64,000 nt of DNA. It comes from Candidatus Undinarchaeota archaeon. Lineage in GTDB: Archaea; SpSt-1190; JASMDC01. Both the position numbers and the translations under genes were made by a program. Below, one piece after another: positions 34,151-38,484 of this stretch. The notes beneath the pieces are model-generated. The model made no database searches, was not told the origin of the DNA, and saw nothing but the letters and a program-made list of their open reading frames with translations. The stretch is taken from contig CAZFHY010000012.1 in NCBI GenBank assembly GCA_964519305.1, positions 1,003-65,002 on the forward strand, written 5' to 3'. Within the stretch, counting starts at the first letter, position 1; each line of letters opens with the position of its first letter.

Positions 34151-34894
34151 CTACTGCTCTTCCTGCTCGGGTTCCTTCTGCACACCGATCATCGGGAAGT
34201 GGTGGCCGTGGGCGGCCTTCTCATAGGCTTGTGCCACGTAGAGGAAGTTCTCATCGTCCATCTCCTCGGCGAGCTCGCGGGCGCGGAGGTTGAGCGTCTG
34301 GTAGGCAAGGGACTTCTCGGCCATCTTGTCCATGATCCGCTCCCTGACGTCCTTGGGCGGGACGATCTTCCGGAAGAAGCTGAGCTGGCCGATCTCCCGA
34401 TGGATCTCAGCATCGATACTAGGTATGTCGAGATCGTTGTACAGGTCATGTAGCTCGGACAGACCCTCGGACTTCTCGGCATGGCCTTTGACGATGTTCT
34501 TCTCAAGGCGCTGTCCCTCCTTCATGAGACCGTAGGACTTGAACGCGTCGACAGCGTTCATGGCGGAGACGACCAGACCGTAGGGATAGAGGAAATAGCC
34601 CCAGATAGCTGCTCCAAAAGCATCGCTCTTGATCTTCGCAACAGCGGAATCCTGTGTGTTCTTGGACAACGTGCGGAGTTCGTTCACATCGTAGGTGGAT
34701 CCTGATTCGGTGTAGAGAGTATAAGAGGCGCCATCCTGTTCGAGGGCATCGTTGAGGTTGTGAAGGACATCCTTGTACGTGGGCCCTTTGCTGAACACAC
34801 CGGGGGGCTCCATCCGCGGTTCGGCCACCACATAGGTGTTCAGACCGGGGACATCGTAGATCTCGATATTCTCAGTTTCGATGATGTCTTCCAT
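34151..34894 (-). CDS. hypothetical protein
   Basis: ORF with a protein-like composition. The start was chosen at the internal ATG (MEDIIETEN). No recognisable domain. Confidence 0.4.
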   Translation of the reverse strand: MEDIIETENIEIYDVPGLNTYVVAEPRMEPPGVFSKGPTYKDVLHNLNDALEQDGASYTLYTESGSTYDVNELRTLSKNTQDSAVAKIKSDAFGAAIWGYFLYPYGLVVSAMNAVDAFKSYGLMKEGQRLEKNIVKGHAEKSEGLSELHDLYNDLDIPSIDAEIHREIGQLSFFRKIVPPKDVRERIMDKMAEKSLAYQTLNLRARELAEEMDDENFLYVAQAYEKAAHGHHFPMIGVQKEPEQEEQ

Positions 34895-35177
34895 GATAAT
34901 CACTCTCTTATGGAGCGCGGGAGCCCGAAGACCGTCTTTTATAGTTTTCCTTTCGACGTGCGCCCCCATCGCTGACCAGGGAGGTTGTTTGGATAGTCTA
35001 ATCTACAAGCTCCTGTTTTGGCCCACAGGATCCAGAAGTCTGATCTACACTAACGTATGAGTCAACCACTGCATCCGACCTGGAAGTACAGATGTGAGTA
35101 TATTGTAGTGAGCCACTGGCGCCAACAAATACCTCGCACGATCGTCGAACGACGAGAACGAAGCAATATCGGGGCTT

Positions 35178-35285
35178 CTAGATGCGGCGCGCCTTGCGCT
35201 GCATCTTACGGCGCCGCTTCTTGCGCCACTTCCAGCGGCTCTTCTTGCCGACCCGCTTCTTCCATGGGTGACTTGTTTTCGACAA
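35178..35285 (-). CDS. rpl41e: ribosomal protein eL41 (L41e), 35 aa, probable TTG start
   Basis: Minus-strand frame encodes (M)SKTSHPWKKRVGKKSRWKWRKKRRRKMQRKARRI, which is extremely Lys/Arg-rich. The core RWKWRKKRRRK resembles the eL41 signature (eukaryotic [25 protein letters not shown]). It is too short to appear in the ORF track. The overlapping listed ORFs (35045..35380 - and 35057..35320 +) are in other frames. Confidence 0.5.
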   Translation of the reverse strand: MSKTSHPWKKRVGKKSRWKWRKKRRRKMQRKARRI

Positions 35286-35399
35286 GTTATATCACTCGTA
35301 AGCGACTGTGGAGTGGATAGCTCTTTTAAGGGTTTCGGCTCGGGCGGGCCCCGAGGGAAGATACATAAAGATTTGCCCACTCGAAAGTCAAGCCTTCAT

Positions 35400-35474
35400 G
35401 GGCTCGTGGTGTAGTTTGGATAGCATGGGGGCTTGCGGAGCCTCAGATCGCGGGTTCAAATCCTGCCGGGCCCA
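35400..35474 (+). tRNA. tRNA-Arg (anticodon GCG)
   Basis: Manual cloverleaf fold: acceptor stem GGGCUCG/CGGGCCC (one G-U), D-stem GUGU/GCAU with a D-loop containing GG, anticodon stem GGGGC/GCCUC with loop UUGCGGA (U33, anticodon GCG, G37), 5-nt variable loop, T-stem GCGGG/CCUGC with loop UUCAAAU, and discriminator A. No encoded CCA. Confidence 0.75.
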
Positions 35475-35476
35475 TC

Positions 35477-35499
35477 CGGGGGGGACCTTCCCCCCCGGT
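35477..35499 (+). other. perfect GC-rich hairpin immediately 3' of the tRNA (CCGGGGGGG-ACCTT-CCCCCCCGG)
   Basis: 9-bp inverted repeat with a 5-nt loop, read directly from the sequence. A possible processing or termination element. Confidence 0.5.
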
Positions 35500-35844
35500 T
35501 AACACCCACTTAACAGTCGTAGGACTCGTCGCCATTTTCACGCGCTCAGGTTAGTTTTTACCAGCTCATACAGGTAAGAATCGCTGTACGGGATACATGC
35601 CCTATAGTCCAGCACACTATATATAGCATCGAAGTATGCGGTCCGAACGAGGCCTTTTGGGGGATATAGATGTACTGAACTCCCACTCCGGAGATAAATC
35701 GAAAGCCAAGAATCTTAATAAGGCTTAATAACGCTTAATTAGGTGAATTAAGCCATATTCGTGCGATTTAGGCGCACAGGCGACGGAAAAGCTTATAAAC
35801 AGGTATTCGATGGTTCGCTATTAGTAAGAAAGCAGGTGACAATC

Positions 35845-36036
35845 ATGCTCATCATCGATCCGGAAATGTACGATGCCTACCAGGCCACTCATGGCGTAGT
35901 AGGCGCCGAGCCCAATACCATCTTGGACATGGGCTTTGGTAACTACAATCCCTTCGATAGATCCGAGAACGACTACGTCGTTAAGGGTTACTGGGAGCCT
36001 GTCTACCAGCCCGAAGAGGACCTTGACAAATATTAG
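35845..36036 (+). CDS. small acidic protein, paralogue A (63 aa)
   Basis: MLIIDPEMYDAYQATHGVVGAEPNTILDMGFGNYNPFD... A GGTGA Shine-Dalgarno-like sequence sits 7 nt upstream and a TATA about 50 nt upstream. Paralogous to 36354..36548. Confidence 0.45.
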   Translation: MLIIDPEMYDAYQATHGVVGAEPNTILDMGFGNYNPFDRSENDYVVKGYWEPVYQPEEDLDKY

Positions 36037-36100
36037 ATATCATTCTTTTTTCCGTACCCCGTCCCCCATCGATCCCGCCTCCCCGGCGGGATCGATACCC
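36037..36100 (+). terminator. oligo-T tract plus 12-bp-stem hairpin (atcgatcccgcc-tcccc-ggcgggatcgat)
   Basis: ttcttttttcc directly after the stop codon, followed by a perfect inverted repeat. Confidence 0.45.
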
Positions 36101-36353
36101 CCCTTTTCCCAATCGCCTCCCTGTGTGAGCTGTTCCCCACGTCACAGGTGTTAAAGTAGCGTTAAGATGGACCGTTCCGACAATATGTCGTATCACACAA
36201 GTATGCGGTCCGAACGAACTTCTAATAACCCTTAATATTACTTAATTTGGCGAATTAAGCCATATTCGTGCGATTTAGCCTCATAGGCAAAGGAAAACCT
36301 TATAAACCGGCCAAGAATGGTGTGAGAACCGTCCGAAAAAAAAGGTGAACGCG

Positions 36354-36548
36354 ATGCTAATCATCGATCCTGAGATGTTCGAGGCGTACCAGCGCACCCA
36401 TGGTGAGCTGGGCACTGAGCCCCGACCGGAGTTGGATCCGGGTTTTGGGGACCTCGATATATTCAGGAACGATCTGTCCGAGCATCCGATGTACGGGGAA
36501 CAGGACCATAAGGACGACCCGTACAAACAGGAGGACACGTATCACTGA
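36354..36548 (+). CDS. small acidic protein, paralogue B (64 aa)
   Basis: MLIIDPEMFEAYQRTHGELGTEPRPELDPGFGDLD... A GGTGA sits 6 nt upstream. Same upstream and downstream signals as paralogue A. Confidence 0.45.
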   Translation: MLIIDPEMFEAYQRTHGELGTEPRPELDPGFGDLDIFRNDLSEHPMYGEQDHKDDPYKQEDTYH

Positions 36549-36612
36549 TCATACTTTTTTATCCGTACCCCGTCCCCCCAACGGCCCCGTCCTCGTGGCG
36601 GGGCCGTTCCCC
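36549..36612 (+). terminator. oligo-T tract plus hairpin (aacggccccg...cggggccgtt)
   Basis: acttttttatcc after the stop, followed by a 10-bp inverted repeat. Confidence 0.4.
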
Positions 36613-37086
36613 CCTTTTTCCTTGCTTATCCCGCCCGGATATATCTATCTTCACGGGAAGGCCCTTCGCTTGAACGCCGTTCCATCCGTATTAAGTATTA
36701 ACAAACCCCGATCACCAACAGTACACGTAGGTCAACTGAAAAAAGCCTACGGATTTCGTAATCCCTGCAGCCCCACCTACGAGACGCCATGAGGTGTGCG
36801 GTTAAAAGACAGACGGAAAGACAATCCTTTTAAGGCGACCATGACTCGTGGCCACCGCCCGCATGGGCAAGCAAAAAAAGATGCATAGAATGGAACAAAG
36901 GAGGAATGCGAAATGCTTTCACTGGTTCCCGGCCCGATGAACATCCAGCGGCCCATCGATACAATGACCCTACAACACTACACGAGCGACGAGTACGACC
37001 ACCCAGAGGTCAAAGCACCTCTAAACCGTTTTCTTGATGATGACCTGACCACGTTCTAGACGATCCACGGATATGTCAGAACAGGC

Positions 37087-38484
37087 TCATTCCTGTTTCT
37101 GCGGGGGCCCGTCACCGACACGCGCCCACACATCACCCAAGTGGTTGACAAGGACTATGTCGTCCTTGGCCTTCTTCTCCAGCCCCTCCAGCAGATCCAG
37201 CGTGCGCTCGATCTCGGAACGGGCTGCAATAGGTCCGGCCGCAGGATCGTAGATGTCCTGCCAGACAAGACGGATGAACACCGCCCGCCCCGGAGTGCGG
37301 AGGTCATAGAGATGGAGATACTCCCGGGTCAGAGTACTGCGCAGCCCACAACACCAGAGGAACTCCACTTCCACAGTGCCATCGAGCACGGCCGAGAGCT
37401 CGCCCTTGCTCTGGGGTACGATTATCTCCCCCTCTACATCCTTACGGGGTACTACGAAGAACCATTGATCCATGCGAACGGGATCGTCCGGTACCGGGAA
37501 CGCTGTCAGCGCGCGTTCGCCCAGGTGTGTCCTGATGAGATCGAGCACGTTCGGAGCCGCCAGGTCGTGGCGGCGCCGGAACTCGGCGGCTTCCTTCAGG
37601 CTCTCCAAGAGGTTCTTGACGCGCTGGTCCTCCTCGTCGAGCCCCAAGGCCATCTGTGCGCACTCTACGGCACGGTCCAGCTTCCCGAGCTCGTCGCTGC
37701 ATACCGCCAGGTTCAACCATGCCTCGCGGAACGACGGGTCCAGGGCCACGGCCCGCTCGAAATCCTGGACCGCACCCTTGAGCTCTCGACGCTCCATATG
37801 GAGGGCACCGAGATGGAAGTGTGCATCGCTGCTGTTCGGATCGGCCTCAATGGCCTTGTGATAGGCGGCCCTCGCGCCGTCGACATCCCCCGAACGTAAC
37901 AGGCAGAGGCCCAGGTCGAGCCATCCCTCGATGAGGGTGGACCGCATCCCTACAGCACGTTCGAAGGCCTCACGTGCCTCCTGCCATTTCCCGAGAGAGG
38001 CGAGGCCGACACCGAGGTTGAGCCAGAACTCGGCCCGTGCGTCGTCGATGGACAAGGCCATACGGGAGCACATCACTGCCTCCTGATGCTTGTTCTCCTC
38101 CACGAGCCAGATGGCGAGGTTGTTCCAGGCCACGCAGTCCTGGGGGTTCTTCTCGATGGCCTTGCGGCAGGCCATCTCGGCGCGTGTGTACTTCCCCTCA
38201 CCTGCGAAGTAGAGGGCGAGGTAGTCGTAGGCCTCGTTCTCCGGATTGGACTCGAGAAGGCGCTTGAAGCACCGCCGCGCACCCTTCTCGTCCCCGAGCT
38301 CCCCCAGGGCGAAGCCTAGGTAGATGAGCACTTCCGGTGCGTCTGGTTCGATACGGAGAGCGGTCCGCAGCAATCGGGCGGCCTCCTCGTACTCCCCATT
38401 GCGGTAGTGCTCCTTCCCATCGAGGAGGAACACGCTCTTGGCGCCCACGCCACGCTTCGGATGGCCAATTATATAAAGGCCCAC
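37087..38484 (-). CDS. TPR-repeat protein
   Basis: At least 8 TPR units in the N-terminal two-thirds (e.g. [59 protein letters not shown]); non-TPR C-terminal domain. Confidence 0.7.

Follow-up and report, generated by a model that had tools for sequence, protein, structure and literature searches.

The question raised by this locus is whether two short open reading frames (ORFs) that follow a tRNA gene are the debris of DNA acquired from elsewhere or a pair of working genes. The locus lies in a 64,000-nt stretch of archaeal DNA (contig CAZFHY010000012.1 of assembly GCA_964519305.1), which we refer to as the window, and consists of two tandem modules immediately 3′ of tRNA-Arg(GCG), each with an upstream array of sequence boxes, a small ORF (A or B) and a 3′ hairpin. 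A first-pass annotation of the window had offered two suggestions for these modules: a remnant of laterally acquired DNA, or a family of small regulatory or peptide genes. From a comparison with related loci we consider it probable that A and B are vertically inherited, lineage-restricted, tandemly duplicated small-protein genes that are co-regulated, and that their disordered acidic products dock through an N-terminal motif. Four lineages are compared below, denoted W (the window), U (L008), X (L088; JGI 3300045006) and Y (L089; SRR18077956). The genome closest to the window is L008 (JASMDC010000011, which bears the label Ca. Undinarchaeales archaeon ETNP3_MAG_31); the GluRS proteins of the two share 91% identity. 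All of the recovered contigs carry metagenome-assembly labels.

The two ORFs on which the argument turns are the following.

35845-36036, + strand: ORF A, an A-type small protein of 63 aa, isoelectric point (pI) 4.05
36354-36548, + strand: ORF B, a B-type small protein of 64 aa, pI 4.3

Between W and U, ORF A differs by 13 synonymous and only 2 non-synonymous changes, giving a ratio of non-synonymous to synonymous rates (dN/dS) of 0.028; the corresponding ratio for GluRS is 0.096, so that the small ORF is under stronger constraint than the synthetase. ORF B has a dN/dS of 0.24 when the whole gene is taken, and its changes are distributed unevenly, with a dN of 0.011 and a dS of 0.28 over the N-terminal 39 codons and a dN of 0.160 in the C-terminal tail. 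The first-pass annotation had named loss of the coding frame among homologues as an observation that would speak against real genes; on the contrary, the frame is kept in the orthologues of all four lineages, at lengths of 58-67 aa. The in-frame GC content at third codon positions is 0.69-0.94. When the paralogues A and B are compared with each other, six of the nine codon differences within the first 17 codons are synonymous, and because the codon differences are mostly of this kind, the conservation of the N-terminus is selected at the level of the protein. A and B are real genes under purifying selection as proteins.

The products were described at first pass as acidic, which they are, and every A and B protein recovered has a pI of 4.0-4.5 and lacks Cys. 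A-type proteins can be aligned from end to end (W is 65% identical to X and 57% identical to Y) and share the consensus M-x-I-I-D-P-E-M-Y-x-A-Y-Q-x-T-H-G-x-V-G-A-E-P-x-T-x-L-D-M-G-F-G-x-(Y/F)-(N/D)-P-F-x-R-S...V-V-x-G-Y...Y-x-P-E. In B-type proteins only the first ~25 residues are shared across lineages and the rest is unalignable; the fixed part spans about 25-39 N-terminal residues, beyond which the tail varies freely. The earlier suggestion that both ORFs join a conserved leader to a variable core therefore holds for the B-type and fails for the A-type, whose full length is conserved in the four lineages. This distinction bears on whether the ORFs encode precursors of ribosomally synthesised and post-translationally modified peptides (RiPPs), in which a maturation enzyme would recognise the N-terminal leader, the variable core would be modified and released, and tandem genes would supply different cores. 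The behaviour of the B-type, with non-synonymous changes between species confined to the tail, fits such a scheme, as do tandem paralogues that each carry apparently strong and independent expression signals. However, the Pfam-annotated genes within 10 kb on either side include no radical-SAM enzyme, cyclodehydratase, lanthipeptide synthetase, RiPP recognition element, peptidase or ABC exporter; the would-be cores are ~40 aa long, highly acidic and free of Cys; and the protein encoded by the convergent TPR gene downstream, described below, reaches 32 bits, where the cutoff is 400, with the peptide-modification cyclase family TIGR04510, the similarity being confined to the TPR repeats. Given the constraint on the whole of the A-type, we regard RiPP precursors as a very unlikely account of the locus.

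Predicted structure is compatible with a disordered protein that carries an N-terminal docking helix: an AlphaFold2 (AF2) model of A, built from a nine-sequence alignment, has a predicted local distance difference test score (pLDDT) of 54, with residues 6-15 as its only helix. An acidic and seemingly disordered protein with the sequence LDMGFGN(Y/F)(N/D)PF also recalls the ribosomal P-stalk. The stalk tail GFGLFD (eukaryotic ...DDDMGFGLFD) binds aEF1A/eEF1A and ribosome-inactivating proteins (PMC4267659), and the A and B proteins might by imitating it act as decoys for translational GTPases or for toxins that bind the stalk, and so modulate translation. All A-type proteins have DMGFG with an aromatic residue after it, DPGFG..D.F is present in the B-type of W and U, and stalk tails resemble these proteins in being acidic and disordered, as far as the predictions go. 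The details of the motif argue otherwise. In the aP1-aEF1A complex the terminal carboxylate of the stalk tail is itself bound (PMC4267659), whereas the motif here is internal, at residues 28-38 of 63-67; the motif lacks the Leu-Phe pair that is strictly conserved in the stalk; the B-type proteins of L088 and L089 no longer carry it; and a profile search of the PDB that included P1/P2 chains returned no P-protein at E ≤ 10. The likeness, which was noticed post hoc, covers 5-6 residues, and we hold the decoy proposal to be very unlikely.

Database searches otherwise place A and B in no described family. A, B and their orthologues match nothing in Pfam, NCBIfam or PHROGs at E ≤ 1, and the family profile, run against all PDB sequences, returned only two antibody light chains (E 0.47-0.65). 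In Rfam only the tRNA gene itself matched, even at E ≤ 1, a snoRNA hit at E 0.85 being noise. The NCBI annotation of the A and B proteins is 'hypothetical protein', and a literature search with the peptide and 17-mer strings (the latter described below) found no paper.

We then consider what surrounds the two ORFs. The elements on their 5′ side are listed here; the purine-rich stretch resembling a TFB recognition element (BRE), the TATA box and the Shine-Dalgarno site of module A were assigned from the sequence, and the Shine-Dalgarno site of module B from sequence and alignment.

35632-35650, + strand: Box 1 of module A (AAGTATGCGGTCCGAACGA), at the 5′ edge of the duplicated unit, a sequence with two copies only in the window
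36199-36217, + strand: Box 1 of module B, the second of the two window copies
35711-35759, + strand: upstream array of module A, three CTTAAT(A/T) boxes in 10-nt phase and one inverted ATTAAG
35761-35777, + strand: candidate operator of module A, palindrome GTGCG-N7-CGCAC just upstream of BRE/TATA
35786-35800, + strand: BRE-like stretch and putative TATA box of module A (GGAAAAG-CTTATAAAC)
35834-35839, + strand: putative Shine-Dalgarno site AGGTGA of module A, 5 nt before ATG
36218-36306, + strand: upstream array of module B, with a degenerate candidate operator (GTGCGATTTAGCCTCAT) and a putative TATA box TTATAAA (36300-36306)
36343-36348, + strand: putative Shine-Dalgarno site AGGTGA of module B

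The modules follow one another after the tRNA with a start-to-start spacing of 507-567 nt. Identity between them is 84% over an 88-nt upstream block and 73% over 85 nt around the start codon, and they also have in common a 19-nt box (at 35632 and 36199) and a 22-nt block downstream of the stop codon. For each of the boxes AGTATGCGGTCCGAACGA and TTAAGCCATATTCGTGCGATTTAG, the 64 kb contain exactly two copies even at up to three mismatches, against approximately zero in shuffled sequence, and the phased CTTAAT-type pattern occurs twice where none is expected. The architecture of the modules is far beyond chance, and the same architecture was found again in the three other lineages. The first-pass description of two tandem copies, each with the shared boxes, a TATA box, a GGTGA site, an ORF of 63 or 64 aa and a hairpin with a T-run, is borne out in every part, and each copy has what appears to be a complete small-gene transcription unit, from promoter and ribosome-binding site through the ORF to the hairpin and T-run.

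Alignment of eight promoters from the four lineages shows which of these elements are kept. All eight retain (C)TAATAA or CTTAAT boxes in roughly 10-nt phase, the ATTAAGCCATATTC box, the GTGCGA...TCGCAC palindrome, a BRE-like stretch rich in purines and a TATA box of the TTATAAA or TTAAATA type 45-52 nt before the ATG (TTATAAA at 35793 in module A and 36300 in module B); (A)GGTG(A) precedes the ATG by 5-6 nt in seven of the eight. The palindrome is perfect, in a 7-3-7 arrangement (GTGCGATTTAATCGCAC), in module A of L088, and we infer that it serves as a transcription-factor site. Box 1 is distributed more irregularly. The copy of module A is identical at 19/19 positions in L008, and a relative, TGCG(G/C)TCCG(A/G)ACG, lies upstream of the A gene of Y (L089 14-33) and of the B gene of X (L088 752-772); it is absent upstream of the A gene of X and the B gene of Y, and neither a consistent secondary structure nor a palindrome was found in it. 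A separate observation concerns the promoter box that reads ATTAAGCCATATT in both modules of W (35748-35771 and 36255-36278) and ATTAAGCTATATT in both modules of L008 (10765-10787 and 11272-11294). The C/T difference is thus common to both paralogues within each genome, which could hint at gene conversion or at co-evolution with a regulator; as a single coincident site it is not significant.

On the 3′ side each module ends in a composite element.

36046-36051, + strand: T6 of module A
36051-36067, + strand: 17-mer TCCGTACCCCGTCCCCC of module A
36068-36096, + strand: 12-bp hairpin of module A
36098-36107, + strand: CCCCCC-TTTT of module A
36555-36619, + strand: 3′ element of module B, comprising T6, the 17-mer (36562-36578), a 12-bp hairpin (36580-36608) and CCCCCC-TTTTT

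The 17-mer is exact in all nine copies available from the four lineages. It occurs twice in the window, even with up to three mismatches, and is absent from the other 80 loci compared. Its frame relative to the stop codon varies among the copies, and for this reason it is non-coding. One match to the 17-mer in IMG/VR was set aside as chance; it sits in GC-rich, coding-like DNA without a hairpin. In each of the nine copies the 17-mer is followed by a GC-rich hairpin of 12-14 bp and then by a C-run and T4-6. The sequence of the hairpin varies among copies, but in the alignment 99% of cells are paired, and when the partners are slid by 1-3 columns as a control only 23-56% are. Compensatory changes are present at four of the 12 pairs, with a covariation score, indicative at this sample size, that was reached by none of 500 shuffles. 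Compensatory changes preserve the pairing of the hairpin, and a terminator-like arrangement of oligo-T and hairpin after each ORF, as proposed at first pass, is present in both modules. Oligo-T alone is generally regarded as sufficient for termination in archaea, and the hairpin therefore probably has an additional role.

The non-coding elements can be measured against a neutral benchmark. Identity between W and U is 67% at the 4-fold degenerate sites of GluRS and 70-77% in the spacers between elements; it rises to 88-96% in the promoter blocks (90% from TATA to ATG in module A and 93% from the array to TATA in module B) and to 96% in the 3′ untranslated regions (UTRs) of module A and module B alike. 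Since the promoter blocks and 3′ UTRs stand at 88-96% against 67% for neutral sites, the cis-elements are under selection and the spacers are near-neutral. That the best-conserved blocks of the locus are non-coding, with an invariant 17-mer and a covarying hairpin, might be taken to mean that its functional products are RNAs or DNA sites (small RNAs made of the 17-mer and hairpin, or protein-binding repeats) and that the ORFs are incidental. We think this very improbable, as ORF substitutions are overwhelmingly synonymous in the plus-strand frame, the early codon differences between the paralogues are synonymous in six of nine cases, and all eight copies retain the length of the ORF, its start context and the ribosome-binding site; nor does any Rfam family match, even at the permissive threshold given above. 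An mRNA with a dual function would be compatible with the small-protein explanation that we favour.

The extent of the family was explored with protein profiles. When 1.84 billion cluster representatives were searched exhaustively with HMMER, using a profile built from A, B and P0001, the hits were the A-type P0001, the B-type P0002, the more distant B-type members P0003 and P0005, and one artefact. A nine-sequence profile used in a word-indexed search of 5.8 billion proteins gave six 90% clusters, three A-type and three B-type, and a single-sequence protein search with A, of limited sensitivity, found its own cluster only. Members come from the four lineages W, U, X and Y, in each of which A is followed in tandem by B, with one extra A copy in X. 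The A and B genes are found on 9-12 contigs and the single-copy GluRS on 11-14, and because these counts match, there are no further paralogues elsewhere in these genomes. The duplication into A-type and B-type predates the split of the four carrier lineages, and the first-pass idea of a family of small peptide genes is upheld. A profile scan of metagenome contigs found one true locus, L090, from the same species as L008; L091 and L092 were discarded as false positives, being bacterial, AT-rich sequence in which MLIIDPEMYD occurs internally by chance. P0004, a 1230-aa bacterial-looking repeat protein with E = 1e-4, matched only via four copies of LDPNTVLDFAFGNYNF and was judged a case of chance or convergence that the repetition had amplified. 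The P0004 repeat LDPNTVLDFAFGNYNF is close to the A-type segment EPNTILDMGFGNYNPF.

The position of the genes is also conserved. The order GluRS, 272-aa ORF, tRNA-Arg, A, B, C, TPR (convergent) and QueC in W is identical in L008 and in all metagenome copies, and in Y (L089) B is directly followed by the convergent TPR gene, whose product is 50% identical to that of the window. These data bear on whether the locus is the remnant of an element (virus, plasmid or genomic island) that integrated at the tRNA gene, as the first-pass annotation had suggested. Its placement immediately 3′ of a tRNA gene, a GC content that falls locally to 0.43-0.55 against 0.62, and a region made of orphan genes are all what such a remnant would leave. 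The AT-rich stretch noted at first pass is indeed unusual for its surroundings, with a GC content of 0.43-0.48 over the promoter parts against ~0.62 in the flanks; as the low GC coincides with the promoter and operator blocks, it is accounted for by promoter and operator sequence and not by foreign origin. The absence of an integrase or att duplication, also noted before, was confirmed: no integrase or recombinase is among the Pfam-annotated genes within ±10 kb, and the 25-nt segment at the tRNA 3′ end occurs once in the 64 kb at ≤3 mismatches, without a direct repeat. Relatives in viromes, which the first-pass annotation had proposed to look for, did not appear either, since IMG/VR has no protein or promoter-box match (its lone 17-mer match being the chance one above) and GenBank phages and PLSDB plasmids gave no tblastn match. 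Furthermore, the locus occupies a syntenic position in every related lineage with known flanks, its order is kept even where protein identity between lineages is down to 50%, and A is under stronger constraint than GluRS. The suggestion of laterally acquired DNA is thus largely refuted already, and we assign it hardly any probability. A replication-origin reading (AT-rich sequence, repeats and G-strings) was also dropped, the repeats being all direct and tied to the ORFs; the neighbours of the locus annotated by Pfam include no orc1/cdc6 gene, and the cumulative GC skew has no turning point there.

These observations can be assembled into a model for the small-protein genes. We propose that each module would be transcribed on its own, as a complete archaeal unit, into a monocistronic mRNA of ~290 nt, with the order phased boxes, ATTAAGCCATATTC box, palindrome at BRE/TATA, ~25-nt leader containing AGGTGA, ORF of 58-67 codons and a 3′ element in which a C-rich 17-mer, a GC hairpin and a U-run follow one another. 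One DNA-binding regulator on the shared repeat and palindrome array would switch both genes together, and the transcript would be ended by the hairpin and U-run. The 17-mer, single-stranded in the 3′ UTR, would be read by a trans-acting RNA or an RNA-binding protein that determines the fate of the mRNA. The invariance of all 17 positions suggests that reading is by base pairing rather than through a protein footprint, and a complementary, G-rich reader RNA would carry a GGGGGACGGGGTACGGA-like sequence. The acidic, largely disordered products would dock on a partner via M-x-I-I-D-P-E-M-Y-x-A-Y-Q-x-T-H-G-x-V-G-x-E-P, in which residues 6-15 are predicted to be helical, and their tails would have diverged, the A tail being conserved and the B tail free. 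The only partner candidate that the locus itself offers would be the convergent TPR neighbour. In a bolder form of the model, the 17-mer and hairpin would be a control element dedicated to post-transcriptional regulation, read by a G-rich RNA or an RNA-binding protein and coupling the output of acidic protein to the state of the cell, with the proteins possibly serving as stalk-tail-like decoys or TPR clients. This form is unlikely. If true, it would amount to a conserved 3′-UTR regulon in an uncultured archaeal clade, without a described counterpart.

Several points weigh against the model or limit its reach. The promoter, transcription start site, terminator and regulator site are predictions drawn from sequence. 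The first T-run precedes the 17-mer in seven of the nine copies and could end many transcripts upstream of it. No partner for the 17-mer was found, and in minimum-free-energy folds of the predicted mRNAs its pairing changes from copy to copy or is absent; by inspection, the tRNA, the trailer hairpin behind it and Box 1 have at most 7 nt of complementarity to it. The covariation and shuffle statistics come from nine related sequences and are indicative, not probabilities. The AF2 alignment likewise holds only nine sequences, and a low pLDDT is weak evidence for disorder. Comparative depth is thin, with four lineages, two of which are known only from contigs of 1.2 kb and 2.2 kb. Finally, a functional link of the TPR protein to A and B is inferred from adjacency only and may just reflect conserved synteny.

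The remaining features of the locus are as follows.

35399-35477, + strand: tRNA-Arg (anticodon GCG), called by ARAGORN and by Rfam RF00005 at 55.3 bits over 35400-35474
35476-35498, + strand: tRNA trailer hairpin with a 9-bp G/C stem and a 5-nt loop (CCGGGGGGG-ACCTT-CCCCCCCGG)
36913-37059, + strand: ORF C, 48 aa, acidic (MLSLVPGPMNIQRPID...DLTTF), at 11937-12080 in L008
37087-38484, − strand: TPR-repeat protein, 465 aa, convergent, matching Pfam TPR families
34151-34969, − strand: 272-aa orphan between GluRS and the tRNA
35178-35285, − strand: ORF of 35 codons, extremely basic (…KSRWKWRKKRRRKMQRKARRI), opposite in strand to the tRNA and just upstream of it

The tRNA is identical to that of the sister species L008 at 77 of 79 nt. 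The perfect 9-bp GC hairpin that had been seen directly 3′ of it is present, starting 2 nt after the tRNA discriminator, with a folding energy of -22.7 kcal/mol (z = -2.8); in L008 all 22 aligned nucleotides are identical, with one indel in the loop. No T-run follows it, so that it is not an obvious terminator; it may serve in 3′ processing, in stability or as a barrier to transcription. ORF C is preceded by a TATA-like box of its own (CCTTTTAAGG, about 36826) and by GGAGG as ribosome-binding site. Gene calls include it in every metagenome copy; L008 retains it with a 3-nt indel that leaves the frame intact, and L089 lacks it. It shows no homology to the A/B profile in hhalign, and its promoter has a weak likeness to that of A and B (22/40 nt). 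ORF C is possibly a degenerate third unit, and its membership of the family is uncertain.

The TPR gene occupies the same position relative to A and B in L008 and L089. The C-terminal ~170 aa of its product (37087-37599, − strand) form a non-TPR domain without a family match that is 45% identical in Y and contains the invariant motifs WC.G.R...RE.LHLYDLR and HLG.VW.R.G.G; an AF2 model of this domain has a pLDDT of 38 and is unusable. Neither ORF C nor the 272-aa neighbour has a match in Pfam, NCBIfam or PHROGs. The latter has a GC content of 0.52-0.55 and corresponds to a 250-aa ORF in the sister species. The basic 35-codon ORF looks like ribosomal protein eL41, a tentative likeness, and has no Pfam or NCBIfam hit. 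Other neighbours within ±10 kb are an RNase_H_2-type protein, a DUF3783 protein and a metallo-beta-lactamase-fold protein, all from Pfam.

The identity of the host deserves a word of caution. Described Undinarchaeota metagenome-assembled genomes (MAGs) have a GC content of 38-43% (PMC7414124, Table 1); that of the window, at ~62%, lies above this range. The Ca. Undinarchaeales label may be unreliable, or the host may belong to a distinct high-GC clade. The next-best GluRS matches, from a scan designed to find close relatives only, are 40% identical and belong to Thermoplasmata-type MAGs. In the 90% cluster of the TPR protein, one member carries the label 'Methanopyri archaeon'. The host is describable only as an uncultured marine archaeon.

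Taken at this level, what the evidence describes is a well-described orphan locus rather than, as far as predictions from the sequence reach, a new mechanism. Its annotation is corrected from integration debris to strongly constrained orphan genes, and the archaeal small proteome would gain a family, one from a clade known only from marine metagenomes. The locus is also a compact example of conserved archaeal cis-regulation, with its phased array, palindrome and 17-nt 3′-UTR box. Should the box be read by an RNA or a protein, it would provide a tractable entry to the poorly charted field of archaeal 3′-UTR control.

Comparison with known systems places the locus more exactly. Like the integrated elements and islands associated with tRNA genes, it abuts a tRNA 3′ end, has a lower GC content and contains orphan ORFs; unlike them, it has no integrase, att duplication or virus or plasmid relatives, and it combines conserved position and order with strong purifying selection. 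It resembles RiPP precursor arrays in its tandem short ORFs with a conserved N-terminus and, in the B-type, a hypervariable C-terminus. It departs from them in having no maturation, export or immunity genes nearby, an A-type conserved end to end, tails that are long, acidic and Cys-free, and a promoter and terminator that each gene appears to have for itself in place of an operon. The proteins share with the P1/P2 (aP1) stalk tail an acidic, disordered context and a DMGFG-aromatic motif, but here the motif is internal, lacks the Leu-Phe pair, finds no statistical match and is missing from half of the B-type proteins. The 3′ hairpin is like that of an intrinsic terminator in its GC-rich 12-14-bp stem with compensatory changes, followed by a C-run and T4-6; the invariant single-stranded 17-mer ahead of it, unneeded for termination, and the extra upstream T-run in most copies set it apart.

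The closest likeness is to archaeal genes for small ORFs of fewer than 70 aa, which are similarly independent and monocistronic, with BRE/TATA promoters, short Shine-Dalgarno leaders and T-rich terminators, and which are likewise confined to narrow clades, without database homologues, and have paralogues that arose by tandem duplication. The locus differs from them in the elaborate upstream array shared by both paralogues and in an invariant 17-nt 3′-UTR box with a covarying hairpin, both of them kept between lineages with a protein identity of only ~50%. To our knowledge, conserved 3′-UTR elements of such a kind are not a described feature of archaeal small-protein genes. A and B are a new orphan family of an ordinary kind, that of lineage-restricted small-protein genes, and the unusual part of the locus is its 3′-UTR box and hairpin.

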